This document shows, piece by piece, positions 1-22,998 of a DNA stretch of 64,000 bases. The stretch is from NCBI GenBank assembly GCA_963804645.1, contig CAWDRG010000002.1:1-64000 (forward strand). The letters run 5' to 3'. The notes under the pieces are model-generated. The model was not told the origin of the DNA. It did not search any database and was given only the letters and a program-made list of their open reading frames with translations. The stretch is from an uncultured Bacillota bacterium (GTDB lineage Bacteria > Sysuimicrobiota > Sysuimicrobiia > Sysuimicrobiales > Segetimicrobiaceae). A program made the translations under genes and the position numbers. The first letter of the stretch is position 1; each line of letters begins with the position of its first letter.

Positions 1-16
1 CAAAAGACTAGTGGCC

Positions 17-1158
17 TAGTGTAGTGCCTCACAAATAACTTGACAGTTCTTCGAGGTGGTGTCATGGTAGGGTTGCATGTGGACACCTCCGGACGCAGTG
101 CAGCTCACGGACGAACAGCGTCGCACACTGGAAGCGTGGGTGGCGGCGCGGACGACGCCGCAACGCCTGGCCTTTCGGGCGCGGATCATCTTGCTGGCCA
201 GCACCGGGGCCTCCAATCGCCACATTGCGCAGCAGGTGCAAACCAGCCGGCCGACGGTGATCTTGTGGCGTCAGCGCTTTGGGGCCGGCGGCGTGGCGGC
301 CCTGACCGAAGACGCCCCCGGCCGCGGCCGCAAGCCGACGTTGTCCCGCAAGAAGGTCCAGCACATCGTGGACGCCACGTTGCATACCACGCCGCCCGCA
401 GCGACGCATTGGAGCACCCGGACCATGGCGCAGGCCCAGGGCGTGAGCGCGGCCACGGTCCAGCGGATCTGGGACGCGCATGGGCTGCAGCCCCACCGCA
501 CCCGCACGTTCAAGTTGTCCACCGATCCGCGGTTTGTCGAGAAACTGACCGACGTCGTCGGCCTGTATCTGAACCCGCCGGAGAAGGCGCTGGTGCTGTG
601 TGTGGATGAGAAGACCCAGATCCAGGCCCTGGACCGCACCCAACCCGGGCTGCCGCTCAAGAAAGGCCGGTGTGGCACGATGACGCATGATTATCGGCGC
701 AACGGCACGACGACGTTGTTCGCCGCGCTCAATGTGCTGGAAGGCACCGTGATTGGCGAATGCATGGCCCGGCATCGGCACCAGGAGTTCCTGCGGTTCC
801 TGCGGACCGTGGACCGGGCCACGCCGCGGGGCCTCGCCCTGCACCTGATCCTGGATAACTATGCCACGCACAAGCACGATCAGGTTCAAGCGTGGCTGGC
901 GACGCATCGGCGCTTTCATCTCCACTACACCCCAACCAGTTCGTCGTGGCTGAATCTCGCCGATCGCTGGTTTCGCGAACTCAGCCAAAAGCGCATTCGT
1001 CGCGCGAGCTTTGCCAGCGTGCCCGATCTGAAACGGGCCATCCACGAATATCTGGCGCAGAACAATATCCACCCCAAGCCCTTCGTCTGGACGGCCAGCG
1101 TCGAGAAGATCTTGGCCAAGGTCAATCGTTGTAAAGCTATTTTGAATACACACCACTA
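17..1158 (+). mobile_element. IS630-family insertion sequence
   Basis: CTAG at both ends (16-19, 1156-1159); imperfect terminal IRs TAGTGTAGTGCCTCACAAATA vs reverse complement TAGTGGTGTGTATTCAAAATA (14/21); encloses the transposase. Confidence 0.85.
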
Positions 1159-1159
1159 G
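77..1159 (+). CDS. IS630-family transposase
   Basis: N-terminal HTH; CVDEK..QAL, HDYRRNGT, LILDNY and PTSSSWLN motifs; stop codon lies in the terminal CTAG. Confidence 0.95.
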   Translation: MWTPPDAVQLTDEQRRTLEAWVAARTTPQRLAFRARIILLASTGASNRHIAQQVQTSRPTVILWRQRFGAGGVAALTEDAPGRGRKPTLSRKKVQHIVDATLHTTPPAATHWSTRTMAQAQGVSAATVQRIWDAHGLQPHRTRTFKLSTDPRFVEKLTDVVGLYLNPPEKALVLCVDEKTQIQALDRTQPGLPLKKGRCGTMTHDYRRNGTTTLFAALNVLEGTVIGECMARHRHQEFLRFLRTVDRATPRGLALHLILDNYATHKHDQVQAWLATHRRFHLHYTPTSSSWLNLADRWFRELSQKRIRRASFASVPDLKRAIHEYLAQNNIHPKPFVWTASVEKILAKVNRCKAILNTHH

Positions 1160-1208
1160 TTAGACCGCTATTGTCCCCTTCACGGCCGTAGTGCGAGGCG
1201 TGATGTCG

Positions 1209-1248
1209 AGGCACCCGGTGTAGAATGTCACGATTTCGTGCAGTAATA
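1209..1248. repeat. ~100-bp direct repeat, copy A left part (interrupted by IS1634)
   Basis: aggcacccggtgtagaatgtcacgatttcgtgcagtaata matches aggcacggctgtaggaagtcataatttcgtgcagtaaga at 5078-5116. Confidence 0.8.
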
Positions 1249-1310
1249 CCCGACATTCCGCAAGTCGCGAAGCGAAGTCTCCCGATTTTCTCGGGGACTC
1301 TTGGGGAGGC

Positions 1311-3014
1311 CTATTGGTAGACCTCGGGCGGAATGTCCAAGAGCTCGAGCAGCGTACGTTGGAGTTGTGACAGCTCGATCGGAAACGCCGTGACCTCCCC
1401 GTTGAGCTCGACCTCGTACCACCGCACGTCTTGAAAGGCCTCCAGAATCCTGGGCCACGTTGGGGTCGGCGTGGGACGATGCTCCGGCAAGAGGGCCAGC
1501 GTCTTGAGGTTCCGCTGCCGCATGCTGGTGCGCACCTCCCGCTCGATGAGGCTCGCGACGACGAGGGCGATAAAGTAGGCGTGGAGCAGGCCCGCCGCCC
1601 GGCGTGGTTTCTTCAGGTACACCGGCGCGATCTCCAGGTCGGTTTTCAACAGCGAGAAGCGTTTCTCGACATAGGGTTGGAATTTGTACATGGCCAGGAC
1701 CTCGCGCTTCGGAGTCTTGGCGAGGTTCGTCACGAGCGGGAAGACCCCATCGGTGCGCCGCTCGCGGGCCAGGGCCTGCCCATCGCGGCGCACGTCCAGC
1801 GTGTAGGTCGTGTGTCGTTCGACCTCCACCGGCGTCTCGGCGGTGGGCCGGCCGCGCCGTAGATAGTGGCGACGCTGCTCGACGTGGCGCTTCACGGTCA
1901 CCTGGAGAAATGGCCGGGTGCCGGTCTCGCGGAGAATCTTGGTGACCGCACGCTGGATTCCCCCGTGGGTCCGATCCCGTCGCCGCTGCCGCGGTAGTTT
2001 GTCTTGGAACTCCCGCAGCGTGGCCTGGGCCTGGGCGAGGCGTCGCTCCCGCGCCTGCGCGTCCTCGACCGCTTTCTGCGAGCTCCGGATCCAGATCATC
2101 CGATATCCGTCGGCCGTGGTCGTGTACGTACCCGCACAGCTCGCGAAGATGTCTGGCGGACCATCCTTGTGCCGGTGGTTGGCGATGCGGAGAATGGGGT
2201 GCCACCGAATGCCATGGTCCCGCAGCCGATCGCGGAAGTGATGGTCTTCTTTCCAGGTCCGCGGCATCACGGTGACAAACTGCCCGCCATAGGCCGCGAT
2301 ATGCCGCAGATTGTCCTGGGTGCAGAGCTTGGCATCGGCCACGTAGATGAACTCCGCGCGGCCCACGAGCGTCCGCAAGGCGTCCACGGTGCTCCGGTGC
2401 ACCGTATCGTCGCTGCGGTTGCCGCTATGGACGTCGTGCCACACGGGGATTGCGCCATCGGCAGTGGCGGTGAGGCCGAAGACGAGCTGCTTGAGGTCCG
2501 GGCGGTGATCTTTGTTGTGCCCATGGGTGATGTGGGGCTCGCCGTGGGCAGTCGCGTAGGCGCCCTGGAACGTGACCGTGGTCGTGTCGTGGTGGAACCG
2601 CTCCGTCGCAAGTTCAAACTGCTTGATGATGCGCAAGGCCAAGCGGAACCAGATGCTGCGCCCCCGTTCGGAGGTGAGCGCATCCAGGGCCCGCGCCACC
2701 CGATCGTCGTTGATCGCCGCGTACTGCGAGGGGGTCAGCGCCAGCACCGCGGGCTCCACCGGCGCGAGCCACGTGGCGATCCGATACAGCGGGCCGGGGG
2801 AGACGAGCAGGTTGTGCACCAGCACGGCGAGCGTGCGCGCGTGATCGACGACCCCCTGGCGCGCGTTGCCCACGCAGCCGCGAATGATGGACTCCAGGGT
2901 GAGGCGTTCGAGGAAGTGCGCGATGATCGGATGCGGCCCGAGGTGATGGATCCGGTGCACCGCGCCCGGAGGAGCGCTGTGGGGACGACGGCCAGCGCGG
3001 GGCCGGAGCGTCAT
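1311..3014 (-). CDS. IS1634-family DDE transposase
   Basis: NDDRVARALD, FHHDTTT, GHNKDHRPDLKQ, YVADAK and YKFQPYVEKRF motifs; start placed at ATG 3014. Confidence 0.93.
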   Translation of the reverse strand: MTLRPRAGRRPHSAPPGAVHRIHHLGPHPIIAHFLERLTLESIIRGCVGNARQGVVDHARTLAVLVHNLLVSPGPLYRIATWLAPVEPAVLALTPSQYAAINDDRVARALDALTSERGRSIWFRLALRIIKQFELATERFHHDTTTVTFQGAYATAHGEPHITHGHNKDHRPDLKQLVFGLTATADGAIPVWHDVHSGNRSDDTVHRSTVDALRTLVGRAEFIYVADAKLCTQDNLRHIAAYGGQFVTVMPRTWKEDHHFRDRLRDHGIRWHPILRIANHRHKDGPPDIFASCAGTYTTTADGYRMIWIRSSQKAVEDAQARERRLAQAQATLREFQDKLPRQRRRDRTHGGIQRAVTKILRETGTRPFLQVTVKRHVEQRRHYLRRGRPTAETPVEVERHTTYTLDVRRDGQALARERRTDGVFPLVTNLAKTPKREVLAMYKFQPYVEKRFSLLKTDLEIAPVYLKKPRRAAGLLHAYFIALVVASLIEREVRTSMRQRNLKTLALLPEHRPTPTPTWPRILEAFQDVRWYEVELNGEVTAFPIELSQLQRTLLELLDIPPEVYQ

Positions 3015-3111
3015 CCGCCTGGGGACCGCACGGCATCTTGACGGCGCATCGGTCTGTCTGTAGAATAACAGACAGATCTCCGAAGTCAAGCATTTGTTCG
3101 AGTGTGCGGAC

Positions 3112-3465
3112 ATGGCGGACGCGACAGACGCGATACGGACGTATGAGGCGCTCAAGGCCGCGGTGGGACGCCTCGGGTGGGTCCGGCCTGGCACGCTCGT
3201 GCGCCGATTCACCCGATGCGGCAAGCCCGGCTGCCACTGCATGGCGGATCCACCGACGCTCCACGGGCCTTACTACGATTGGACCTATAAGATTCGCGGC
3301 CGGTCGATCGCGAGGCGCCTCACGGCCGCGCAAGCTCAGCGCTGCGGGCAGTGGCTGCAAAACCATCGCAGGTTGCGGCGGATCGTGCACAAGATGGAAA
3401 CGCTGTCGCGGAAGGAGACGGATCGGTTGCTACGCGCGATCGCCAAGGAACCTCACGAGAAGTAG
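3112..3465 (+). CDS. DUF6788-like small Cys/His protein inside the IS
   Basis: GTL..RCGKPGCHC...HGPYY.W motif typical of IS-associated DUF6788 proteins. Confidence 0.8.
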   Translation: MADATDAIRTYEALKAAVGRLGWVRPGTLVRRFTRCGKPGCHCMADPPTLHGPYYDWTYKIRGRSIARRLTAAQAQRCGQWLQNHRRLRRIVHKMETLSRKETDRLLRAIAKEPHEK

Positions 3466-3532
3466 GTGCGGTCTAACCCCCTAGCAAAAATCTGCAAACC
3501 CGCCCCTCAGACTTGCGGAATGTCGGGTAATA

Positions 3533-3588
3533 CCCCCGCAAAATATGGGATTTTGAGCCCTCTACCACGATATCGGCCGTGGTTTGGT
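3533..3588. repeat. ~100-bp direct repeat, copy A right part
   Basis: cccccgcaaaatatgggattttgagccctctaccacgatatcggccgtggtttggtc matches 5118-5175. Confidence 0.8.
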
Positions 3589-3652
3589 CAACTTCCTCTT
3601 GCTAGAGTGCTTGTCGGCGGGTGTTCACAACTCTCGCAAAGGAGCATTTCGA

Positions 3653-4297
3653 ATGAGAAAGCTTGTCTTAAAAATGTCGATGACGCTCGACGGATTCGTT
3701 GGCGGGCCCAACGGCGAGATCGACTGGCTGATTCGCACTTTGGATGAGGACGCAATGGCCTGGATCGCCGACACTCTCTGGCAGGCTGGACTACACGCGA
3801 TGGGCAGCCATACGTACTACGACATGGTTGGATACTGGCCGACTTCGACGGAATTGCTCGCGGCGCCAATGAACGAAATTCCAAAAGTCGTGTTTACGCG
3901 GAAACCATCCATGGACCTGGGTGTGGGGCGCACGACGACTGCGCTTCGGGACGCGACGAAGGCTCGTGAAGCAGAAGGCGGAGCAACAGCGGCGAAATCC
4001 TCTCCGAGTGCGGTCAGTTGGGCCGCCGCTGAGGTCGCAACCGGCGATCTGGCGGCAGAGGTCGAACGGTTGAAGAAGCAGCCCGGCAAAGACATCCTGG
4101 CCCATGGCGGAGCATGCTTTGCGCGAAGCTTGGTGAAGCTCGGGTTAATCGACGAATACCGCCTCCTGATTCACCCGGTTGCCATTGGCTCTGGCCTTCC
4201 GCTATTTTCGGACTTGCCAAAGCCTATGGACTTGAAGCTTGTCAGCACGTCGGTTTTTAGATCGGGTGTTGCGGCGTTTGTCTATCGCCCAGCGTAG
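3653..4297 (+). CDS. Dihydrofolate reductase / RibD C-terminal family protein
   Basis: MRKLV..MSMTLDGF, GG..FARSL..GLIDEY.L.IHPV..GSG.PLF; RBS AAGGAG. Confidence 0.92.
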   Translation: MRKLVLKMSMTLDGFVGGPNGEIDWLIRTLDEDAMAWIADTLWQAGLHAMGSHTYYDMVGYWPTSTELLAAPMNEIPKVVFTRKPSMDLGVGRTTTALRDATKAREAEGGATAAKSSPSAVSWAAAEVATGDLAAEVERLKKQPGKDILAHGGACFARSLVKLGLIDEYRLLIHPVAIGSGLPLFSDLPKPMDLKLVSTSVFRSGVAAFVYRPA

Positions 4298-4472
4298 GTG
4301 GCGGACGCACCTCGCGAACGGACTGCGGCGGGCGCACAAGCAACTTAGTAGCACGACACCGGCCGTGCAGCCCGGAGCGGAGAGCGCCGCCCAAAGAAGG
4401 GCGGACAAGAGGCCGGAGTGATCTCGTCCTGGGTCACGTGACGCCAATCGGATTCACCCGCCAGGTCTCTTC

Positions 4473-4494
4473 TGGTATGATAAATGTGAATACC
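4473..4494 (+). promoter_or_regulatory. TA promoter (extended -10 TGgTATGAT) with GGTAT..ATACC inverted repeat
   Basis: Directly upstream of the antitoxin; typical autorepression layout. Confidence 0.5.
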
Positions 4495-4513
4495 GTATGG
4501 GAGGCCGTGAACG

Positions 4514-4750
4514 ATGAGCACGCAGAAGGTGGCGATTACATTGGACCGGGTCATCCTGCACGAAATTGACCGCTTGGTGGCTGAGGGCCGCTACCCGAGT
4601 CGAAGCCGCGCCATTCAGGAAGCGCTCCGGCGACATCTGGACCGAACTCGACGGCAGCGCTTGGCCGACGAGGCCGCGAAGCTGGATCGAGCAGAGGAAC
4701 GCGGACTTGCCGAGGAGAGCCTGGTGGGTGAGGCGTGGCCCGCGTCCTGA
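4514..4750 (+). CDS. Ribbon-helix-helix (CopG/MazE-like) antitoxin
   Basis: KVAITL..IDRLV....PSRSRAIQEA RHH pattern; overlaps the toxin start. Confidence 0.88.
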   Translation: MSTQKVAITLDRVILHEIDRLVAEGRYPSRSRAIQEALRRHLDRTRRQRLADEAAKLDRAEERGLAEESLVGEAWPAS

Positions 4751-5070
4751 GAGGGAGCATCTATTGGGCGGATCTGAACCCGGTCCGTGGCAGCGAACAA
4801 GCGGGCGTCCGCCCCGTGCTGGTGCTGAGTCACGACGTCTTCAACGACCGATCTGGTACTGTGATCGCCGTTGCGCTGACGAGCCGTCCTCAAAAAGCGG
4901 GGTTCCCGCTCACGCTGCGCCTGGAGGGTACCGGGTTGCCCGCACCGTCTTGGGTGAAGATCAGTCAGATCCGAACGCTTTCGACCGAGCGGCTGGGCCG
5001 CCGAGTAGCGACGGTGTCCGCAGAAGAGCTTGACCAAGTCATTGAAGGATTGGTCGAGCTCATCGGGTAG
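4735..5070 (+). CDS. mazF: PemK/MazF-family endoribonuclease toxin
   Basis: RGSIYWADLNPVRGSEQAGVRPVLVLS..FN and SWVKISQIRTLS motifs. Confidence 0.93.
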   Translation: MARVLRGSIYWADLNPVRGSEQAGVRPVLVLSHDVFNDRSGTVIAVALTSRPQKAGFPLTLRLEGTGLPAPSWVKISQIRTLSTERLGRRVATVSAEELDQVIEGLVELIG

Positions 5071-5077
5071 TGGGTGC

Positions 5078-5175
5078 AGGCACGGCTGTAGGAAGTCATA
5101 ATTTCGTGCAGTAAGACCCCCCGCAAAATAAGGACTTTTGACCCCTCAATCACGATATCGTGGAGTGGTGTGGTC
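5078..5175. repeat. ~100-bp direct repeat, copy B (intact)
   Basis: Roughly 80% identical by eye to reconstructed copy A; contains the palindrome CACGATATCGTG (5151-5162). Confidence 0.8.
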
Positions 5176-5242
5176 GCGGGTTGTAGGCAATGAGGTTCAG
5201 CTATAGGCGAACCTCGTTCGGCCGAGCCCATAATAACCAGTT

Positions 5243-5270
5243 AGGCTGCATAATCCCCGTTATGTGATGT
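5243..5270 (+). other. dif-like Xer recombination site
   Basis: AGGCTGCATAA-TCCCCG-TTATGTGATGT: 11-6-11 layout with GCATAA/TTATGT as in E. coli dif GGTGCGCATAA-TGTATA-TTATGTTAAAT; intergenic. Confidence 0.65.
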
Positions 5271-5492
5271 AGCCATGCGTGCGGGCCCTGCACAGCAAGG
5301 TCTTCCAGCGAACACGCGAAATCGAGGTCGCCTGCCGGCCGCCGACCCCTGTCGCGCTTGGACCCCGGAGTCGGACGTGTGAGCAGTCCGTGACGCGATG
5401 TCCTCGCGACACCACGGCCTGGACGGATCATGCCGGAAGGGCCCCACCCCGGGGCTGAAGAAGCGCAGGGGGCACGAGCCCGGAGGCGTTCG

Positions 5493-8400
5493 ATGAGCTC
5501 TACAAGAGCGGAAGGCCCTGACGGCAGGTTCAGAGTAGCGTGGCCGTTGGTTCCGGCTCTCCCCGGACGTCGGATTGCCACGATCGCGATCGTGGCGGGC
5601 ACGTACCTGGTCGCGGCCAAATTCTGTTTTCGGCTCGCCTCCGTCAATCCAAGCGTCACTCCTGTCTGGCTGCCCACCGGAATTGCGATCGCAACGATCC
5701 TCTTGATTGGGTACCGTGGATGGCCTGGCATCTTCCTCGGTGCGTTTCTCGCGAATGTCACGACTGCCGGGACCATGTGGACGTCACTCGGGATCGCCAC
5801 GGGAAATACGCTCGAGGCGCTGGTCGCGGCATATCTGGTCAATCGGTACGCGGACGGTGTGGACGCATTCGATCATCCCAACACGCTATTTCGGTTTGCA
5901 TTGCTGGCCGCGGTCGGGAGTACCATGGTGAGCGCGACGATCGGTGTCACCACACTGGCCCTCGCCCGGTTCGCGCCGTGGACCGACTACGGTGCTGTCT
6001 GGTTCACGTGGTGGTTGGGCGACGCGACGGGGGCGCTGATCGTCACGCCTCTCGTATTGCTGTGGAGTCGTCGGCCGCCGACGCGGTGGTACCCCCGGGA
6101 GGTACTGCAGCGCATCGCATTCCTGGCCGTGCTGGCGGTGGTCGCCGGCATCGTTCTCAGCGGCCTTGTCCCCTATCCGTTCCTGCTCGCGCCGCTCCTG
6201 GTTTGGGCTGCGTTTCGATTCGCTCCGTGGGAAGCGATGGCCGCGCTCTTCCTGCTCGGCGGCATCGCGATTTGGGAGACCACGATGGGCCACGGCCCGT
6301 TTGCGCGCGCGACGTCGAACGCGTCGTTGCTGGAGTTACAGGCCTTTCTCGCCGCGATGGTGTTGGTCACCCTTCCGCTGGCGAGCGCTGTTGCAGAGCG
6401 CCAGGCCGCGGATCGAGATCGGCGCCGACACGAAGGCGCGCAGCGACTGCTCGCAGAGGCTGGGATGGCGCTCGGCACGTCGCTCGACCCCGACGAGACG
6501 CTCAAGGCCGTGGCACGCCTCATGGTCCCGGCGCTGGCTGATTGGTGCACCGTGGACGTTCTCACGAGCGAAGGTCGGCTCCAAACCTTAGCGCGGGTTG
6601 ATCACGATCCGGCCAACGCTGAGGTCAGCGGCGATTTGTCCATCCGAGATGCGGCGGGAACCGTGAGTGTTGTACCGGGCGTCCATGAGACGATCCGGGA
6701 CGGCCGTTCTCAAATCTACCCTGATCTGCGAGCGCATCCATCGGCGACTGTGGGAGACGCGCCGCCGCGCCAGATCGTCCGCGATTTGTACCCGCGCTCC
6801 GCGATGATCGTCCCGCTCACGGCGCGAGATCGCATCCTCGGAGCCCTGACGCTCGTGTCAACAAGTTCCGCGCGTCGTCGATATGACCAGGCGGACCTCG
6901 TGCTTGCTGAAGAGATCGCGCGGCGCGCGGCCATCGCGGTCGACAACGCGCGGCTCCATCAGATAGTGGAAGAACAACGTCTCGCCGCGGAGCAAGCCCA
7001 GCAGCGTGCGGAGCAGGCCGCCGTGCGCGCAGAGCGGCTGCAGGCGGTCACCGCTGCGCTCTCGCAGGCGCTGACACCGACGCAAGTAGCGGACGTGATT
7101 CTGACCGAAGGCAACCGGGTGTTGCATGCGGCCGCCGCGGTCGTATACGAGTTGCGGGAAGAAGATGCCAGCTTAGAGATGCTGAAGAGCGTCGGATACC
7201 CGGAACCGCTCGTGAGCGTCTGGAGCCGCATCCTCGGCAGCGCTGAATCCCCGGCGGCGGAGGCCGCGAGGACCGGACAACCCGTGTACTACGAGTCGAT
7301 CGCGGCCGTCCTGCGACGATATCCGGCGCTGCATGGCAAAATGAACCCCTACCAGGGGCGGCGAACGTTCCATCCCCTGCTCGTCGGTGGACGACCGACT
7401 GGGGCGCTCGGGTTCATCTTCGAAGAGGCCACGGAGTTTGAGACGGACGAGCGGATTTTTATCGCGGCGCTGGCGTACCAGTGTGCGCAGGCGCTCGAAC
7501 GATCAGGATTCTATGCGCGGGAACACCGCGTTGTCGAGGCGCTGCAACACGCATTCTTGCCCGTCGGGCTTCCGCAAATTCCCGGCATCGAGATCGATAC
7601 CGCATACCTGCCGGGCGCCCGCGACTCGAAGCTCGGCGGCGACTGGTACGATGTGTTTCACCTGTCGGACGGACGCGTCGCGCTGTCGATCGGCGATGTC
7701 GTGGGCCGCGGGCTGGACGCCGCCGCCATGATGGGACAGATCCGGCAAACCATCCGCGCGGTCGCGCTCAGCGGGCACGAACCGTCGGCCGTACTCGAAC
7801 ACGCCAGTCGAGTGCTGAATCTGACCCACGAGGCCGACGGGATGGCGACGGCGATCTTCGGCGTCCTGGATCCGGTCACGCGAACGTTCGAGTATTCGGT
7901 GGCCGGCCATCCGGCTCCCGTCGTGGCTCCGCCCGACGGCCCCGCGCGGGCTCTGCCTGCGGGCGGGGTCCCGCTTGGGTTTGTCAGTACCGACGAGCTG
8001 ACATCGCAGCGCGTGGTGCTCTCTCCTGGAACGCTCCTCACGTTGTATACCGACGGGCTGACCGAGTTCGCGCACGACGCCCCGGCTGGTGAGCACGCGC
8101 TGTTCCTCGCGGCCGAAGAGCTGCAACGTTCCGGGGACGCCGGTCCGGCGCACGCCCTGCTGCGCCGCGTGCTGGGGGATACGGTCGGAGCGGATGATAC
8201 CGCGATCATTACGGTGCACGTGGCTGACCACGCGCTCGATCGGTTGGATCTCCTGCTTCCCGCACGACCGTCGACGCTGCGGCTCGTCCGGCAGGCGGTT
8301 CGGCAGTTGACCACAGCGCTGTCCCTCGACAGCAGGAGCGCCGCGTCTCTCAACGTTGCGGTTGGCGAGGCGGTGAACAACGTGATCGAGCACGCGTACG

Positions 8401-9083
8401 GCGCGACCCCCGGTACCGTGTCGCTCCATGCCGAGCGAGACGGCGACATGCTACACATCGAAATCAAAGATCACGGACGCTGGCGTCCCGAGCGTCAAGA
8501 CGAGACGGGCGGCCGCGGCCTCATCCTCATGCGAGAACTCGTCGACGCGGTGGAGGTGCGCTCTACGCCTGCGGGGACGGTGACGCGGCTCAGTATCGCG
8601 CTGCCATCGGAAGCCAGCGCGGTAGAGACCGACGCGCCCGGCCGCGTGGAGACTGGCGCGGCGTCACCTGTGCGCGGCGGCCCTCAGGCTACGAGATCGG
8701 CGATCCACTCCGAGGCCGCTGCCGAGCCGATCCCCCCGGCGGCGCAACTGGAGCTTCAGCGTGTGTCCGGCGTGCCCGTTGTGTCGGTGGTCGGTGATCT
8801 GGACCTGACGAACATCGACCGCTTCGCCAGTCTTCTCGAGCGGGCGGCCAGTGGGAACGAGAAGACCGTCGTGCTCTCGCTTGCGGAGGCCACGTATCTT
8901 GACAGCCATGCTCTTCGCGTGATTTTGCAGATCGGACGGCGCATTCTGACGAGCCGCCGCCGATTGGTGCTCGTGATCCCTCCCGCGTGCTCCGTGCGGC
9001 GCATCCTTGACGCCGTCGGTCTCCACGGCGTGTTTCCAGTACAGCACTCCGTGGAAGCCGCAATCGCTGCCACGACCGACTGA
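5493..9083 (+). CDS. MASE1-GAF-GAF-SpoIIE(PP2C)-RsbW-like kinase-STAS multidomain regulator
   Basis: MASE1 (PVWLPTG, GNTLEA, WWLGD); two GAF domains; PP2C GGDWYD/GDVVGRG/YTDGL/DDTA; HATPase EAVNNVIEHAY/GRGL; STAS GDLD..YLDS; RBS GGAGG. Confidence 0.92.
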   Translation: MSSTRAEGPDGRFRVAWPLVPALPGRRIATIAIVAGTYLVAAKFCFRLASVNPSVTPVWLPTGIAIATILLIGYRGWPGIFLGAFLANVTTAGTMWTSLGIATGNTLEALVAAYLVNRYADGVDAFDHPNTLFRFALLAAVGSTMVSATIGVTTLALARFAPWTDYGAVWFTWWLGDATGALIVTPLVLLWSRRPPTRWYPREVLQRIAFLAVLAVVAGIVLSGLVPYPFLLAPLLVWAAFRFAPWEAMAALFLLGGIAIWETTMGHGPFARATSNASLLELQAFLAAMVLVTLPLASAVAERQAADRDRRRHEGAQRLLAEAGMALGTSLDPDETLKAVARLMVPALADWCTVDVLTSEGRLQTLARVDHDPANAEVSGDLSIRDAAGTVSVVPGVHETIRDGRSQIYPDLRAHPSATVGDAPPRQIVRDLYPRSAMIVPLTARDRILGALTLVSTSSARRRYDQADLVLAEEIARRAAIAVDNARLHQIVEEQRLAAEQAQQRAEQAAVRAERLQAVTAALSQALTPTQVADVILTEGNRVLHAAAAVVYELREEDASLEMLKSVGYPEPLVSVWSRILGSAESPAAEAARTGQPVYYESIAAVLRRYPALHGKMNPYQGRRTFHPLLVGGRPTGALGFIFEEATEFETDERIFIAALAYQCAQALERSGFYAREHRVVEALQHAFLPVGLPQIPGIEIDTAYLPGARDSKLGGDWYDVFHLSDGRVALSIGDVVGRGLDAAAMMGQIRQTIRAVALSGHEPSAVLEHASRVLNLTHEADGMATAIFGVLDPVTRTFEYSVAGHPAPVVAPPDGPARALPAGGVPLGFVSTDELTSQRVVLSPGTLLTLYTDGLTEFAHDAPAGEHALFLAAEELQRSGDAGPAHALLRRVLGDTVGADDTAIITVHVADHALDRLDLLLPARPSTLRLVRQAVRQLTTALSLDSRSAASLNVAVGEAVNNVIEHAYGATPGTVSLHAERDGDMLHIEIKDHGRWRPERQDETGGRGLILMRELVDAVEVRSTPAGTVTRLSIALPSEASAVETDAPGRVETGAASPVRGGPQATRSAIHSEAAAEPIPPAAQLELQRVSGVPVVSVVGDLDLTNIDRFASLLERAASGNEKTVVLSLAEATYLDSHALRVILQIGRRILTSRRRLVLVIPPACSVRRILDAVGLHGVFPVQHSVEAAIAATTD

Positions 9084-9392
9084 ACGCTCGAGGCGGTCGC
9101 GTTGCCAGCATACGGCCGCGCTATTTCAAAGGTTGACTCGGGAACATGGTTCGATCACCATAGGCCAATTCGGCGTCGTCTGTCGGAGGCAAGATGCTCC
9201 CCCTCCCCTACGCATCGTGTTGTACGTGCGTGGCCAAGAAGAGGGCGGTGGTCCCTTGCCTTCACCCTACTGAACGATATCCCGATACCCTACACGCCCC
9301 TTGGCGACCACATCGAGTTACCCGCCCGCGCGGCGAGGCTCTTAGGTGAAATCTCCAGTTCTGCGGTTGCGCCGCGGCTACCACGACGTCGC

Positions 9393-10178
9393 TCAGCGCT
9401 TGTCGTACTCGTCGTGGCGGCGCCACCAGACACCGGTCTCATTGCGCCCCTTGGGTGCGCGGTCGAGCCACTGGTACATGCCCCAGAGGCCGTCCAGTCC
9501 GCGTGCATAGGTGGAATAGGTGTGGTAGACGACGCCGTCCTCGAGCACGAACGCGCTCATGCCCGGCCTCTGGCGCGTGTACGTGGCCACGTCGGTTCCG
9601 GTCATGGCCGCGATCTCGGCGACAGGCCCGTCGCCGCGTTTCGTCAGTGAGTCGCCGATCCCGCGTACCGTCCACGCCGCCTCGCGCCGGTAGTTGTATT
9701 CGACGGCCCCCGCGCGCTGTTGCGCCTCGGTGAGCGAGACGTTGATGTCGAAGTTGAATTCACTGCCGAGCGAGGACGCCCAGGAAAACGTCCACCCCAT
9801 CCGCCGCTTGTACGCTTGCAGCTTCGCGAGCGGCGCCAGCGACACCGCCGAAAATGTGACGTCGTGGTTCGCCAGGTGGACGACGAAGCCGTTGAACCCG
9901 TCCGCGATTGACGAGCAGGACGGACACCCCGCCGTGTAGTCGGGCCCGAACATGAAGTGGTAGACGAGGAGCTGCGAGCGCCCGCGGAAGAGGTCTGCCA
10001 GCGAGGCGCTCCCCTCGTCGGTCTCGAATCGATACTCCTTGTCGACTCGCACCCAGGGTAGCTCCTGCCGCCGCCGCGCCAGCTCGTCGCTGCGCCGCGT
10101 GAGCTCCTTCTCCGCTTCGAGCAGCTCGAGCCGCGCTGCGAGCCACTCTTCACGCGTCCCGGTCATGTGCTTTGTCAT
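9393..10178 (-). CDS. DUF899 family thioredoxin-like protein
   Basis: EWLAAR..LL..EKE.TR, SQLLVYHFMFGP, GCPSCS, YHTYSTYARG, LDRAPKGRNE. Confidence 0.93.
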   Translation of the reverse strand: MTKHMTGTREEWLAARLELLEAEKELTRRSDELARRRQELPWVRVDKEYRFETDEGSASLADLFRGRSQLLVYHFMFGPDYTAGCPSCSSIADGFNGFVVHLANHDVTFSAVSLAPLAKLQAYKRRMGWTFSWASSLGSEFNFDINVSLTEAQQRAGAVEYNYRREAAWTVRGIGDSLTKRGDGPVAEIAAMTGTDVATYTRQRPGMSAFVLEDGVVYHTYSTYARGLDGLWGMYQWLDRAPKGRNETGVWWRRHDEYDKR

Positions 10179-10295
10179 CGCTCGTCCCTCTTTCGTGCTG
10201 TTACTTAGGCGACCTTAGTCGCCCACGAACCCACCAACTTTGGTCGGTGCGGCTTTGGTTCCACTTGTCGATCTCGATATCGTTCTCCGCATCCC

Positions 10296-10742
10296 CTATT
10301 CTTTCTCGTTCGGCTGGCCTTTACCGGTAGTAATCAAGCTCCGCAAACTACCGTTCGTGTAATAGCCCCATGCGCTTGAGCAGGCGCCGTAACATTCATA
10401 GTCAGGAACTAAGCCCACGTGAGTGAAGCGGACCTCGGTCTTGTCACCCTTCTTGGCGATTTCAAAAGTAATTCTTGTGCCCTTCCACTCACTCTTGTCT
10501 TCAACAAAGTTGAGGTAGCCGTCCAAAACAAGCCAAACGACTTTCTTCCCAGGGATTAGTTCTGTTATCTTCTGTTTGGAATAATGGACGTCTTTGTAAC
10601 GATACGTAAACTCATCCCCGAGTTTGTCGGTGCTGCCTTCAAGTTCTCCTGACCACCATCCGCGAACATTATTGATGGCGGCGAAGGCTTCTTCGGGCGT
10701 TTGGTCTACCGTAAAGGTCGTGGTGAAATTTTGACCACTCAT
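10296..10742 (-). CDS. SRPBCC/AHSA1 domain protein (low GC)
   Basis: GWWS, EWKGT.ITFEI, FTHVGL..ECY..CS..W pattern. Confidence 0.88.
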   Translation of the reverse strand: MSGQNFTTTFTVDQTPEEAFAAINNVRGWWSGELEGSTDKLGDEFTYRYKDVHYSKQKITELIPGKKVVWLVLDGYLNFVEDKSEWKGTRITFEIAKKGDKTEVRFTHVGLVPDYECYGACSSAWGYYTNGSLRSLITTGKGQPNEKE

Positions 10743-11218
10743 CGTTTCTCTCCGCCTTTCGGGGTGCCCGTGCGACGCTCCGCCCCTTCACGAACTTTGG
10801 CGAGGATGTAGCCCCAGCCTTTGCCGACCCCCTCTTGATGCGACGGTGTGATCTGTCCGATCGCCCGATGGACCAACGCGAGGCGCGTGCGGCCGCTGTC
10901 GGCCGTCAGCCGGTACTGCACGTGTGAGACGGCGGGATACGACATGAAGAGCGGCCCTGAGATTTCTAGGAGCGTCGGGGGCTTGATGACCTGCACATGC
11001 CCCCAGAGATGGCCGGCATTGTTCCCGAGATCCCGGTACCAGCGGCCGCCCGGCCATGGCTCCAGCTTCATGGGGAGCGGCGCAGCCGGCCCCGCCTCGT
11101 TGAGTGGACCGAGCTGTTCCAAGAGTGTCTCAAAGACCACGTCGATCGGCGCGGCGATCGTTTCCTCTCTTATCACTTCGAGGGTGTGGATCGCTTGTGC
11201 TGACGTGTCCGTCGTCAT
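10739..11218 (-). CDS. SRPBCC/AHSA1 domain protein
   Basis: IAAPIDVVFE, LEPWPGGRWYRDLG, GW.YIL; ATGA coupling to neighbours. Confidence 0.88.
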   Translation of the reverse strand: MTTDTSAQAIHTLEVIREETIAAPIDVVFETLLEQLGPLNEAGPAAPLPMKLEPWPGGRWYRDLGNNAGHLWGHVQVIKPPTLLEISGPLFMSYPAVSHVQYRLTADSGRTRLALVHRAIGQITPSHQEGVGKGWGYILAKVREGAERRTGTPKGGEKR

Positions 11219-11589
11219 CGTCCGGCCTCCTCGTTTTTCGTGGGTTCACGGAGCGATCGCTCCAGTGCCTTGCGCTCAGCCCGATCCTTGATTCGCTCAA
11301 GTTGATGGTCCCAGAAGTGTTCGTACGTGCTCACCCAGTCGTGTACAGGTTTGATCTCCCTCGCGTTGAGGCGATACAGGCGGCGGCGGCCCTGCTGGCT
11401 CGCCGACACAATCCCGACGGCGCGGAGCACGCCGAGGTGCTTCGACACGGCTGGTTGTGGGAGCCGGAGTCGCCGAACGACCTCCCCGACCGCATGGGCT
11501 CTGCCGTCCGCCAGGATATCGATGATCGCCCGCCGGCGCGGCTCCGCGATCGCGTTGAATGCGTCTGTTGTGGTTGCTGCTCGTGGCAT
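11215..11589 (-). CDS. ArsR/SmtB-family transcriptional regulator
   Basis: DAFNAIAEPRRRAI, QPAVSKHL.VLR..G.V, GRRRLYRL. Confidence 0.93.
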   Translation of the reverse strand: MPRAATTTDAFNAIAEPRRRAIIDILADGRAHAVGEVVRRLRLPQPAVSKHLGVLRAVGIVSASQQGRRRLYRLNAREIKPVHDWVSTYEHFWDHQLERIKDRAERKALERSLREPTKNEEAGR

Positions 11590-11700
11590 CAGGTCAGGCG
11601 CCCCGTGTGGACCCCGCGGCACGTACCGTTGTGGTGTCGTGCATAACGAGTGCCTCCCTGGCGGCGCGTTTGCCGCGACCCCGCTCGCGTCATGGTCCCT

Positions 11701-11728
11701 ATTATATTCCCATATGAGAATATGTCAA
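11701..11728 (-). promoter_or_regulatory. Consensus sigma70 promoter with overlapping palindromic operator
   Basis: Minus strand TTGACA-16 bp-TATAAT; palindrome ATATTCCCATATGAGAATAT (11704-11723). Confidence 0.85.
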
Positions 11729-11905
11729 GACCAAACGAGGGGAAAGTTCTGGGGTCGGTTCGGCGGGGCTCTCTGGGCTGGTCGTCACGCTCTGGGAGAG
11801 TTCGTCGGTCGTTAATCGGCGCCGGCGGAGACGAGTCCCACGCCTGTGCGCCCGGCACCACGCTGTAACGGTGCCGGTGCTTGAGGCGGCCCAGGGTCCA
11901 GCCCG

Positions 11906-12529
11906 TCAGATCGGGAGGCGCCGAGAGATGCGCGCGCTTACGGAGCGGTGGCCCGCCGCGTGCGAGTCCTCAAGAAATGCTGCCAGCCGATCGTACCACT
12001 CCACGAGTGCGGCGATCGGAAAGTGGGCGTTGGCCGGGCTGGGGTTCGGAATGACATAGAGGCGCACGGACCCCATGCCGATCGGTTGTGCCCCCAGCGT
12101 CCAGTCGCGTCGATCGCTGTCGAGCGCGTACCGGGCGAACGCTCGGTACGCCGTGATGCCGTGGAAGCAGACGACGCGCGGCGCGACCCGCGCGAGGCGC
12201 TGCCTCAAGCGCGGGGCCCACGTGTCAAAATCCTTCGGACGAAGCGCCGCCGCGTTGCGGCTCGGCGTTTTGACCACGTCGGTGAAGCCGATCCCAAATC
12301 GCAGGAGTCCGCGGTCATCACCGGGGCCGAGCGCGGAGCGTCCAAGCGCCGCGCGGATGGGCGCGGACAACCGCGACCGAGAAAACGCCGGCCAAAACCG
12401 GTTGGTCGTCCGTGCGAAGTAGCGTCCGCGCTCCACGGAGTAGATGCTGGGATTGATTCCGACGAACACAAGCCGCAGACGCGGGCGCAGGTAGTCTGGC
12501 AGTGTTCGAAACGGATACCCGTGCGTCAT
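11906..12529 (-). CDS. mug: Mismatch-specific uracil-DNA glycosylase (Mug/TDG family)
   Basis: LPDYL...L..VFVGINP, NRFW, GIGFTDVV, PNPSPANA. Confidence 0.9.
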   Translation of the reverse strand: MTHGYPFRTLPDYLRPRLRLVFVGINPSIYSVERGRYFARTTNRFWPAFSRSRLSAPIRAALGRSALGPGDDRGLLRFGIGFTDVVKTPSRNAAALRPKDFDTWAPRLRQRLARVAPRVVCFHGITAYRAFARYALDSDRRDWTLGAQPIGMGSVRLYVIPNPSPANAHFPIAALVEWYDRLAAFLEDSHAAGHRSVSARISRRLPI

Positions 12530-12736
12530 GGGGAGTAGTTGGCGGCACGGGAGGTGGTCCCCTGGTCGCGATCAAGCGGGGGTCCCCTCTCGTGGCCTCG
12601 AGACGTCTAGGCGTGCACGAGATGCAGGTCCGCCGCGTCGCTGGGAGGCTGAACGCGGGGTCGAATCGAAGGAATAGTGCGCGGGGCAACCGCGCGCAGA
12701 GCGCAACTGCAGATGCCCCAGCCTGGGGGGAGTCCC

Positions 12737-13429
12737 GTGGCGGTTCCGACGCTACTCACGACGCAGGCGCAAGACGAGACGTTCGGCGGTGTCACGTACC
12801 ACATCCAAGGCGAGTTGGTACCGGTCTTGCACGTGGAGCTGAGCGCCCTCCCCGTCTACTTCGAGCACCACATCCTGCTCTGGAAGGATCCGGCGGTCGA
12901 GATCAGCATCAAGCCGCTGAAGGGCGCGATGAAACGCGTGCTCTCGGGGATGCCCGTCTTCATTACACAGGCGAAGGGACCGGGACGGATCGCGTTCAGC
13001 CGTGACGGCGCCGGCCACGTGTTCGCGCTGCACATGAAACAGGGCGAAGCGGTGAACGTCCGCGAACATCAGTTTCTCGCCGCCACGGACAGCATCGATT
13101 ACACGTACTCGCGGGTCAAGGGCGCGGCCAACATGCTGTTCGGCGGGACCGGGTTCTTCATCGACACCTTCACGTGTGCGCGCCCCGAGGGGATTCTCTG
13201 GCTGCACGGGTACGGGAATGTGTTTACCATGACCCTTGGGCAGGGCGAGCAGATCGACATCGAACCCGGCGGCTGGATCTATCGGGACCCGACCGTCCAA
13301 ATGGAAACGATCTTCCAAAAACTGTCCACCGGGCTGTTCGCCAGCGCCGGGAACCTATTTTGGAACCGCTTTACGGGTCCCGGTCGGGTGGCGATCCAGT
13401 CGATGTATCTCAACATGCCAACCGAGTGA
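12737..13429 (+). CDS. AIM24 family protein
   Basis: YHIQGE..PVL.VEL, GGTGFFIDTF, LHGYGN, FTGPGRVAIQSM; GTG start after GGGAG (ATG 12713 is an alternative). Confidence 0.85.
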   Translation: MAVPTLLTTQAQDETFGGVTYHIQGELVPVLHVELSALPVYFEHHILLWKDPAVEISIKPLKGAMKRVLSGMPVFITQAKGPGRIAFSRDGAGHVFALHMKQGEAVNVREHQFLAATDSIDYTYSRVKGAANMLFGGTGFFIDTFTCARPEGILWLHGYGNVFTMTLGQGEQIDIEPGGWIYRDPTVQMETIFQKLSTGLFASAGNLFWNRFTGPGRVAIQSMYLNMPTE

Positions 13430-13780
13430 ATCCGGGGTCGCATGCGTGAGGAGTTCCGTGACGAGACAGTTACGTTGGCGCAAGCGGAAGTGCCGCATCA
13501 TTCGTCGAAGCGCATCTCCTTTACGCGGATGTGGCCCGTGTGAGCGCGGTACGTCGTACTGCGTAGGTCTCGGCGCTGCCGGTGCGCGGGGCGAATCGAG
13601 GGTCTGCGGCGCGGCCGGCGCCGATGACGGCAGTGATCGAAGTCGCTGGCCTCAGCTACGTGCGAGCCGAACGTCTTGACAGCTAACCAACGGATCAACT
13701 TATAGTAGAGGCGAACGACCTTACCGCTCTTCGGCGTCAACGTGATCGGACGCGACGAGTGGGGGAAACGGTGCGAGGTG

Positions 13781-14443
13781 ATGTCGTTGCGGTGGCGGAA
13801 TCTGGCGGCATTCGGATCCAGTCTGATCGCAGGGATGGCACTGTGCTCGCCGTGGCTCGGCGGGCCGGGCACGGCGTTCGCCGACGATGTCGTTCAGCGA
13901 TTCGCGATCGTGCCCGCATCTTCGACGGCGTCGTACCAAGTGGACGAGACCTTTATCGTGAAGTACCTCGATCACGTGGTGGTCGGTACGACTCACGCGA
14001 TTCAAGGCGAGATCGCGATCGACCGAGCCCACCCCGACCAGAGCGTGGTCGGCCCGATCCGCGTGGATCTCAGAACGCTCAAAACGGATTCATCCAACCG
14101 TGACAACGCGATCCAAACCCGTTACCTCGAGTCAGCCAAGTACCCTACCGCGGTGTTCACGTCGACGCGGATTTACGGGATTCCCGACACGTACGCCGAC
14201 GGTCGGGACATCCAGGTCGAGGTGCTGGGCACCCTCATGATGCACGGCGTGGCGAAGCCGGAGGGGTTTACGGGGAGCGTCCGCCTCGCGGGGAACACGC
14301 TGACCGGGACCCTCACCACCATGGTGCAGTGGACGGACTTTAGTATGGAATCGCCGAGCATCCTGGGCCAACGCGTCATCCCCGATCAGGTGACGCTGAC
14401 GGTGCAGTTCGTCGCCGCGCGGGAGTCGGCGACCCCGCACTGA
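13781..14443 (+). CDS. YceI family secreted protein
   Basis: Signal peptide; VDLRTLKTD..NRD....YLE..KYP.A.F, GTL..HGV motifs. Confidence 0.88.
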   Translation: MSLRWRNLAAFGSSLIAGMALCSPWLGGPGTAFADDVVQRFAIVPASSTASYQVDETFIVKYLDHVVVGTTHAIQGEIAIDRAHPDQSVVGPIRVDLRTLKTDSSNRDNAIQTRYLESAKYPTAVFTSTRIYGIPDTYADGRDIQVEVLGTLMMHGVAKPEGFTGSVRLAGNTLTGTLTTMVQWTDFSMESPSILGQRVIPDQVTLTVQFVAARESATPH

Positions 14444-14506
14444 CCGCGTTCTAGTTCTTCCGGCGTATTGGGAGGGATGCAGTCCGCAGGAGCGCCCCGC
14501 AGCCCA

Positions 14507-14536
14507 TTGACACGAACGTACGTTCGTATATATGAT
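14507..14536 (+). promoter_or_regulatory. sigma70 promoter with Gram-positive-type LexA (SOS) box
   Basis: TTGACA (14507-14512), CGAAC-GTAC-GTTCG (14513-14526), TATGAT (14531-14536). Confidence 0.85.
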
Positions 14537-14542
14537 CCCAGC

Positions 14543-15568: not shown

Positions 15569-15614
15569 GTGCGGCCGGGTACGCGCGGACCGTAGCTGGA
15601 CGGAGGGTTGGGCG

Positions 15615-22008: not shown

Positions 22009-22998
22009 ATGGTCGCGCGCCGCCCGCTCCGGTCACCGGTGCCGTCCAGGCATCCCCTGCTCCTCGAGTGGTGGACGGATCTCGAAGGGGACAACCGGTC
22101 CGTCAACACCCGCCTCGCCTACGTCCGCGACGTGCAGCACTTCGCCGAGTACGTCGAGAACCGCCTCGAGCAGGTCACGTCGGAGGATCTGATCCGGTTC
22201 GGCCGGCGGATGACCGAGGCGGGACTGTCCGTGGGGACCCGGGCGCGCCGGATCACGGCGCTCCGTCGCTTCTACGAATGGTTCCGTCGGCGGCAGCACG
22301 AGCCGTTCTCGGTCGCGCAGGATCTTAAGCCGCCGCGCCGGCTGCGGCGCGTGCACCGGTGGTGGACCGAAGAGCAGGTCGCGCAGTTCAGGGCGGCGTT
22401 TGAGGGAGACGACCCGCGGGTGCTGCGCGACCGCGCCATGGCGGAGCTCGGCCTGATGGGACTGCGGGTCAGCGAGGTGACACGCCTCGACATCGAGCGG
22501 GTGGTCCGCCTGAGCCGTCCCGACGACGCCTCGATCGTCGTGTCGCGCAAGGGCGGCAAGGAGCAGGTGCTGCCGTTGACCGCCGACGCCCGTGCGGCCC
22601 TGCTGCAGTGGCTCGCGGTGCGGCCCCCCGCGGCGACGACCGCGCTCTTCTTTCGGATCCCGTTTCAACCGCGCCGTGCGCGGCTGCACTACGCCAGCGT
22701 CGAGAAGATTTTCAAGCGGTACGCCGCGCGGGCCCGCGTCCCGATTCCGGACGGGATCGCGTTTCACCACCTGCGCCATACGGCCGGCCAGCAGATGGCG
22801 AACATCGGGCTCGGGATCGAGGAGGCGCAGCGTCTCCTCGGGCACGAAAGCCCGGTGACGACCCAGGTGTACTACGAGGTGACGGACGCCCGGCTGCGCC
22901 GGGCCGCGCAGCGGCTGCGCTACGCGGGGTCGAGCGGGACCGCCCCCCGGGCCCGCCGCGCGGCCTCCCCATCCGGCCTCGCGCGCCGATCGGACTGA
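22009..22998 (+). CDS. Tyrosine recombinase, XerC/XerD-like
   Basis: SAM-like N-terminal domain; catalytic R (GLRVSE), K (RKGGKE), HxxR (HHLRH), H (LGHE), Y (TTQVY); RBS GGAGG. Confidence 0.93.
   Translation: MVARRPLRSPVPSRHPLLLEWWTDLEGDNRSVNTRLAYVRDVQHFAEYVENRLEQVTSEDLIRFGRRMTEAGLSVGTRARRITALRRFYEWFRRRQHEPFSVAQDLKPPRRLRRVHRWWTEEQVAQFRAAFEGDDPRVLRDRAMAELGLMGLRVSEVTRLDIERVVRLSRPDDASIVVSRKGGKEQVLPLTADARAALLQWLAVRPPAATTALFFRIPFQPRRARLHYASVEKIFKRYAARARVPIPDGIAFHHLRHTAGQQMANIGLGIEEAQRLLGHESPVTTQVYYEVTDARLRRAAQRLRYAGSSGTAPRARRAASPSGLARRSD

Follow-up and report, generated by a model that had tools for sequence, protein, structure and literature searches.

The classical XerCD/dif system employs two recombinases, XerC and XerD, and its Escherichia coli site is given in Table 1 of PMC2731167 as GGTGCGCATAA-TGTATA-TTATGTTAAAT. 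Other dimer-resolution systems work with one recombinase. In streptococci and lactococci XerS is linked to a terminus site with asymmetric half-sites, difSL, as described in PMC5357621; this site spans 31 bp around a centre of 11 bp, and xerS lies directly next to it. In Campylobacterota (XerH/difH) and Legionellales (XerL/dif) a lineage-specific single recombinase with its own dif has replaced XerCD, and relatives of these lineages are described as keeping the classical system (PMC2731167; PMC9765430). Linkage of dif to the recombinase gene is called a possible hallmark of single-recombinase systems in PMC5357621. Insertions of the IMEX type are, in the descriptions of PMC5357621 and PMC9765430, bounded by dif and a dif-like mimic.

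We analyzed a stretch of 64 kb, referred to as the window, which is the beginning of contig C2 in a draft genome of 22 contigs (5.31 Mb, about 69% G+C, 96.8% complete). Positions 5243-5270 of its + strand read AGGCTGCATAA-TCCCCG-TTATGTGATGT, an 11-6-11 layout with CATAA/TTATG as the inner dyad. An earlier note on this DNA had taken the 28-mer for a dif site with an attI-like core fused to its left end. Our analysis makes it likely that the 28-mer is a dif site served by one lineage-specific Xer, with 5223-5242 being ordinary flank. The relevant features of the window are as follows.

5223..5242, no strand assigned: flank called attI-like, outside the site (unconserved; matrix scores negative)
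5243..5270, + strand: predicted dif site of 28 bp, presumed chromosome dimer-resolution site (uniqueness, conservation with unrelated flanks, intergenic position)
5243..5253, + strand: left arm AGGCTGCATAA, the variable arm (comparison with 13 relatives)
5254..5259, + strand: central region TCCCCG, presumed strand-exchange spacer (classical layout)
5260..5270, + strand: right arm TTATGTGATGT, the conserved arm (comparison with 13 relatives)
22009..22998, + strand: xer, encoding a 329-aa Xer-like tyrosine recombinase with PF02899 and PF00589 domains, presumed sole dif recombinase

The locus resembles XerCD/dif in the 28-bp 11-6-11 layout with its inner CATAA/TTATG dyad, in the single copy in the terminus region with variable surroundings, in the better conserved right arm and in the presence of an FtsK with a gamma domain. 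It differs in its outer right arm, which is GATGT and not TAAAT, in its G+C-rich spacer (TCCCCG), and in that no XerC or XerD equivalog is encoded, whereas the classical pair and site are kept in sister families of the same order. The likeness to XerS/difSL lies in one recombinase linked to a terminus site with unequal half-sites. In contrast to difSL, the site found here is 28 bp long with a 6-bp centre and its gene is 5-30 kb away; the protein scored 67.9 bits against the NCBIfam XerS family (NF003462, cut-off 267), so that both protein family and site size place it outside that group. The arrangement of a lineage-specific single recombinase with its own dif in place of XerCD is that of XerH/difH and XerL/dif, but phylum, protein clade and site sequence are different. 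By the sequences given in PMC5357621, difH has no CATAA/TTATG core, unlike the 28-mer. XerL is reported as experimentally necessary and sufficient for recombination (PMC9765430), whereas the role of the window Xer is a prediction.

The 28-mer is intergenic. On one side is an RHH/MazF toxin-antitoxin pair (4514-5070, with mazF ending at 5070), and on the other a large sensor gene with a MASE1 domain starts at 5430, 160 bp downstream. When up to three mismatches were allowed, the 28-mer was matched once in the window, and no match of any kind appeared in 100 shuffles. The core GCATAA-N6-TTATG, with at most one mismatch, had the 28-mer as its sole match on both strands of the window (0.08 expected). 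The exact core occurs once in the whole 22-contig genome, again as the 28-mer, and the other matches, on C6 and C15, have one mismatch each. We built a scoring matrix from the sites of 13 relatives, leaving out the genome of the window. With this matrix the 28-mer scored 50.1 bits and the runner-up 10.3 bits among 10,615,722 genome positions; only two positions reached 10 bits. No second dif-like site or strong half-site was found in the matrix scan of the 22 contigs. The earlier note had named a better dif at the skew switch, together with lack of conservation of the 28-mer in relatives, as the result that would count against its reading, and the assembly contains no better dif. The length of about 28 bp, the two imperfectly inverted 11-bp arms, the centre within the 6-8 bp range and the single copy per chromosome, as far as a 96.8% complete draft allows it to be counted, are all those of dif sites. 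The cleavage positions would be those of the classical layout.

Two identical dif-like words, at C8:110677 and C17:13592, scored 9.8 bits. They adjoin duplicated integrase fragments (C8:110173-110418 and C17:12862-13212) and probably belong to a mobile element that is present as a repeat.

Conservation of the site was analyzed in the family to which the window belongs (f1), whose available genomes are all MAGs, labelled Bacillota, 'Bacillati bacterium ANGP1', Armatimonadota or plain 'bacterium'. A blastn search with positions 5100-5430 against 40 relatives matched six genomes, that of the window among them. In G011, G006, G003 and G001 the match consisted of the 28-mer plus a few bases only and started at query positions 143-144, which are window positions 5242-5243. 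Sites extracted from relatives are one to six letters off the window's and have unrelated flanks. A search with a right-half pattern (up to two mismatches) gave matches in 16 of 23 family genomes and none with the reversed control pattern. A clear site with an AG-type left arm and unrelated flanks is present in 14 of the 23, and the full form in these 14 genomes is approximately AGRYNKYAKAA-NNNCCG-TTATGTGATST, preceded by T and followed by A. Five pattern matches look like chance and all of them are without an AG-type left arm: these are the second matches in the window genome (G000), G001 and G010, and the sole ones in G007 and G004. Seven of the 23 genomes have no pattern match and two more a doubtful one; among those without a clear site are G009 and G016, which are 92-94% complete. 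Overall, the sequence is kept among relatives while its flanks vary, and the expectation in the earlier note that 5243-5270 but not 5223-5242 would be conserved was borne out.

The two arms are conserved to a very different degree. In the left arm of the 13 relatives, A1 is present in 11, and G2 and A10 in all 13, and positions 3-9 vary (CATAA, TAGAA, TATAA, CGTAA). The search pattern did not include left-arm positions 1-8, whose conservation thus tests the site independently. The 5′ half of the spacer is variable and its 3′ CCG nearly invariant, part of this invariance being ascertainment, as the CG was fixed by the search pattern. The right arm is far less variable than the left: TTATGTGA is found in 13 of 13 relatives, followed by T in 12, by G or C, and by T in all 13. 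Its invariance is likewise in part ascertainment from the pattern, and four of the sites were found by pattern-free blastn. The right-arm sequence is family-specific, with matches in 16 of 22 f1 genomes; the order's other families gave 6 matches, spread over 5 of 68 genomes, and the reversed-pattern control in the same 68 genomes also gave 6 matches. In a metagenome scan with a 15-letter right-arm pattern at least 121 stretches were matched. Among the 80 examined three are dif-like (L175, L158 and L106), and the other loci among those 80 are chance matches in unrelated, mostly low-GC DNA.

The closest relative, G004, has an Xer which is 96% identical but split by a frameshift, in a genome that is 65% complete. 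Its sole candidate site (C10:13570-13597, L087) combines the family right arm with a foreign left arm, CCATTGTAGCA. The flanks of this candidate match contig C9 of the window genome near 1.365-1.371 Mb, and the xer block of G004 (C5:80357-100356, L086) adjoins DNA which in the window genome is located on C17 at 780-797 kb. This arrangement may have come about by rearrangement or misassembly, or the site may be a hybrid.

Analysis of GC skew places the 28-mer in the terminus region. Skew is clean on all large contigs, at about +/-0.03-0.05, and its sign changes only on C9 (origin-type, cumulative minimum near 435 kb) and on C2 (terminus-type, cumulative maximum at 70-95 kb). The 28-mer is thus on the sole contig with a terminus-type switch, as its reading as dif in the earlier note would have it; the switch is 65-90 kb to its right, a distance of 1.2-1.7% of the genome. 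It is near the skew switch with no fine-scale coincidence in this genome. According to PMC3025954, the one-sigma range of offsets between dif and the switch is 0-1.39% of the genome and outliers stay below 3%; values for single genomes in Table 1 of PMC2731167 reach 39,100 bp in E. coli K12 and up to 77,935 bp. In G011, where one contig covers the site together with both of its flanks, the cumulative skew peaks in the same 5-kb bin as the site. The visible side of the site in G003 has the expected skew sign. On the xer side, G001 shows a flat skew, and in G012 the skew has the opposite sign over the visible 19 kb, as in the window genome.

Between 1 and 95 kb of C2 both skew and octamer polarity are weak or neutral, and from 5 to 95 kb the skew is slightly positive, the 'wrong' sign where the xer side is concerned. 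Octamer polarity was calculated as log-odds trained on the other contigs. In this KOPS-type test the bias of even the most skewed octamers is no more than 72-77%. Neither the switch in skew nor that in octamer polarity coincides with the 28-mer. KOPS polarity, which the earlier note had proposed as a further check, is neutral over 1-95 kb and neither places nor displaces the 28-mer at a fine scale. We infer that the point where replication forks meet has drifted in this larger, IS-rich genome.

Only 5.2 kb are visible to the left of the 28-mer. Because contig C2 begins inside an IS, the left replichore junction was deduced from synteny with C13: the far side of the site in G011, G012 and G003 matches C13 of the window genome from 39 kb on. 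The adjacency of C13 to the left end of C2 is by synteny only, and no contig end shares a 25-mer with the first 300 bases of C2. Several relatives also have a contig end 0.5-7 kb from the site. The GC content of window positions 1-16000 and of C13:1-25000, on the two sides of the site, is 0.61-0.68, versus 0.69 in the genome; if C13 adjoins C2, dif is within a strain-specific stretch of roughly 40 kb.

The window genome has eleven matches to PF00589, and none of them reaches the XerD cut-off. The best Xer-like gene of the genome is the xer gene of the window. Its product scored 144.8-145.7 bits against NCBIfam XerD (cut-off 329.6), 139.4 bits against XerC (cut-off 335.15) and 126.8 bits against XerA (cut-off 220). 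The closest solved structures are XerD 1a0p (E = 3e-21) and the archaeal Xer 4a8e. The gene is single-copy in 21 of 23 family genomes, with 73-96% identity, and the two genomes without it are 64% and 83% complete. Columns invariant in 19 aligned sequences include R153, H253, R256, H279 and Y288/Y289; at K181 the conservation is at least 90%. From the R-K-H-R-H-Y pattern of the family we take these to be the catalytic residues.

Among the 14 genomes that have a clear site, the site and xer are on one contig in eight and are separated by a contig end in six. In all eight the site is upstream of xer and on the same strand, at distances of 5.2, 7.8, 9.4, 9.5, 16.2, 16.5, 16.7 and 29.8 kb, the value for the window genome being 16.7 kb. 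The xer side is a syntenic backbone conserved in four genera, consisting of an aminotransferase region (15.4-17.0 kb), xer, and then 32.9-39.6 kb. The segment 23.0-32.9 kb is an insertion common only to the window genome and G004. This insertion of about 10 kb, directly downstream of xer, contains a gene for a 2002-aa protein (24014-30019, + strand) with glucoamylase-like and GH94 supersandwich domains. A full-length FtsK with 4TM, alpha, motor and gamma domains is encoded on contig C4; the genome carries both a presumed Xer recombinase for the site and the translocase.

Taken together, the unique and conserved 28-mer in the terminus region is very probably a genuine dif site. Dimer resolution at this site would start from an odd number of crossovers between sister chromosomes after replication, which would yield a chromosome dimer. 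The FtsK translocase would join the two dif copies at the septum, and a tyrosine recombinase acting on the two 11-bp arms would exchange strands across the 6-bp spacer, giving monomers. The recombinase would be the divergent Xer of the window alone, on both arms, as with XerS, XerH and XerL elsewhere, and no XerC/XerD pair would be formed in this lineage. Binding by this Xer, dependence on FtsK and the lack of a second partner are all predicted here from sequence data.

That the site is worked by a single lineage-specific Xer is also probable, though less so than its identity as dif. In the profile search the XerD cut-off was reached in none of the 23 family genomes. A sample of 60 genomes from the class, each with a completeness of 90% or more, gave the same picture: the cut-off was passed in 0 of 15 f1 genomes versus 35 of 45 others. 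The sample includes G034 and G086, which are flagged as unpublished and on which no conclusion depends by themselves. Most of the sister-family genomes above the cut-off have a second match of 290-328 bits. In five sister genomes we found one unique classical site each, for example ACTTCGCATAA-GGTCCG-TTATGTTAAAT. These sites are of the ACTTCGCATAA-N6-TTATGTTAAAT type, which matches the proteobacterial dif sequences published in Table 1 of PMC2731167. Since the family is without canonical XerC/XerD and the sister families have both together with a classical dif, a single-recombinase system is the simplest reading. One conserved Xer linked to its dif is what is found in this family, though the linkage is looser than that of xerS and difSL, and the pair of XerC and XerD which defines the classical system is absent from the profile matches.

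The window Xer is 30-35% identical to both sister-family paralogs and shares 39-41% identity with the lone Xer found in two genera of family f5 without the canonical pair (G040 and G061). Four f5 genomes (G040, G061, G049 and G077) have no canonical XerC/XerD and one Xer-like gene each, of 168-177 bits; a search of these four for TAA-N6-TTATGTG gave no matches, and their dif is of another type than TTATGTG. In a tree of 25 rows the 11 Xer rows of the window clade and the two f5 lone Xers are separated from all canonical rows with support of 100/99. This tree was unrooted, was built on frames taken from tblastn and held no reference XerC, XerS, XerH or XerA rows, and it gives neither a donor nor an order of events.

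It is somewhat more probable than the opposite that the family has replaced an ancestral XerC/XerD pair and classical dif by one divergent Xer and a co-evolved dif. The predicted dif of the family keeps the CATAA-N6-TTATG core; the letters of its outer arms are new and its spacer is G+C-rich. If the replacement is real, dimer resolution by a single recombinase would have one more independent case in addition to XerS, XerH, XerL and archaeal XerA, and the related lone Xer in some f5 genera (39-41% identity) would share the same takeover. Among the papers listed in a limited full-text literature search, none is on this lineage by its title. A dif site alone is ordinary housekeeping DNA, and the interest of this one is in the contrast within one order: two canonical Xer proteins and a textbook dif in the sister families, one divergent Xer and altered outer arms in the family of the window. 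Such a contrast would offer a natural pair of systems for the co-evolution of recombinase specificity and site sequence, and it raises the question of how a homomeric Xer handles two unequally conserved arms. The site may also mark the terminus when drafts from this uncultured lineage are to be oriented.

The best of the alternatives is a classical two-recombinase dif whose second Xer is too divergent or lies in the unassembled 3% of the genome. The completeness of 96.8% leaves room for such a gene, and the combination of a variable left arm and an invariant right one is the same asymmetry that is described for the XerC and XerD arms of Proteobacteria in PMC2731167. Extra Xer-like genes of 129-232 bits are also present in about 10 of the 23 family genomes, and the window genome itself has a broken, frameshifted one (C11:127573-128430). 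Nevertheless, no second Xer-like gene common to the family was found in the 23 genomes, and in six of them (G003, G008, G009, G016, G022 and G007) the conserved Xer is the only one at E <= 1e-15. The two accessory types tested are rare: the C15 recombinase has weak matches in 3 of 22 relatives, and the best-scoring extra type, that of G002, occurs in 2 of 23 genomes. By their distribution and reading frames, the other recombinases of the window genome are accessory or broken. The distribution of XerD-level matches given above, none in near-complete f1 genomes and most in sister families, also speaks against this alternative, and the known single-recombinase sites difSL and difH are described as asymmetric too (PMC5357621). 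We consider a two-recombinase system unlikely. The labels 'XerC arm' and 'XerD arm' used in the earlier note are probably inapplicable, because no XerC/XerD pair was found.

Contig C15 is of lower GC (0.668) and has two adjacent, overlapping tyrosine-recombinase genes, for products of 721 and 357 aa (G000:C15:12835-15932). A weak recombinase match, the third one there, is nearby at C15:9628-9771. These recombinases are not conserved in the family. The genes resemble a recombinase-trio mobile element.

The 28-mer could instead serve a mobile element for attachment or switching, or act as a regulatory operator, with no role in dimer resolution. Its position in a low-GC, IS-rich stretch beside a toxin-antitoxin module and its closeness to the large sensor gene would suit such a function. 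Such sites are at odds with one copy per genome that has no inverted or direct partner, with neighbours that differ in every relative while the xer side is anchored to a housekeeping backbone, and with the coincidence of site and skew switch in G011. The linked recombinase, which is single-copy, syntenic and family-wide, is also unlike an integrase of an element. This explanation is very unlikely.

The third explanation, proposed in the earlier note, concerns the left flank: an attI-like core fused to dif as the scar of an IMEX- or integron-type integration at the XerC arm. The letters were correctly placed there, both those of the 28-mer and those of GCCCATAATAACCAGTTAGGC at 5226-5246, and the heptamer GTTAGGC (5240-5246) does fit GTTRRRY, which is the one likeness to an integron attI. 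But GTTRRRY was observed 58 times in the window versus 55.07 expected, which is chance frequency, and four of the seven letters (AGGC) are the conserved outer dif arm itself. Since AGGC is conserved and a T-rich dinucleotide precedes the outer arm in most relatives, GTTAGGC recurs in G017 and GTTAGAC in G015 and G010. The flank itself, 5223-5242, is kept in no relative: blastn matches begin at 5242-5243 and the flanks are unrelated. A second, degenerate Xer site, which had been suggested to overlap the dif from 5223 on, scored -28.9 bits, a value reached by 209,730 of 10,615,722 positions (2%), and all windows starting at 5205-5242 scored -28.9 bits or lower.

Nor are the other parts of an integron present. 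The best TIGR02249 score for an integron integrase in the whole genome is 37.2 bits, versus a cut-off of 265, and the immediate neighbours of the site are mazF and the MASE1 sensor gene and not an intI. A simple motif test over 16 kb gave no attC-like R''/R' pair with the heptamer at 5240; two R''/R' pairs, both at the same site elsewhere, were seen versus 1.5 in shuffles, and by this test there is no downstream attC cassette array. A blastn search with 5205-5275 against 72,556 plasmid records gave no integron match, and its two 19-23-nt matches are due to chance (E = 6). As with the IMEX elements (CTX phage, gonococcal island, LME-1), low-GC and horizontally acquired DNA abuts dif here. Unlike in an IMEX insertion, no second dif-like site bounding an inserted element is found within the assembly. 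As neither an integrase nor an attC-like pair nor a further dif-like site was found, the integration scar is unsupported, and the attI-like resemblance beside dif looks like chance.

What the scar has in its favour is the DNA around it: a low GC content (0.61-0.67), which extends from the site in both directions as far as about 16 kb, and, directly to its left, mobile elements, two copies of a repeat of about 90 bp and mazEF. The elements are an IS630-like one (77-1159) and an IS1634-like one (1250-3526, with a DUF4277 transposase). The latter has a copy at C19:301827-304103 which is 99.96% identical, and a disrupted copy on C15. By Pfam these left-hand elements are of the DDE-transposase type, and neither they nor the repeat or mazEF use Xer; the mobile DNA left of dif is not an Xer-mediated insertion. 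An integration scar is largely refuted and very unlikely.

The repeat of about 90 bp has four copies in the window genome, at 1219-3589, 5087-5175, C17:624462-624549 and C17:852532-852614, and was absent from the 40 relatives by blastn. The first copy is split by the IS1634-like element. The two copies on C2 are direct and bracket a RibD_C gene and mazEF. The copy at 5087-5175 was considered as an attC-like or RNA element and rejected, as it folds no better than shuffled sequences (z = -0.95) and so is without a recombination-hairpin fold, and a comparison of 1-24000 with Rfam gave no matches at E <= 0.1.

The large gene to the right of the site (5430-9083, + strand) is specific to the window genome among the relatives' loci compared. 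It encodes a protein of 1217 aa with MASE1 (membrane sensor), two GAF, SpoIIE/PP2C phosphatase, HATPase_c_2 kinase (of the anti-sigma type) and STAS domains, that is, an entire partner-switching module in one polypeptide.
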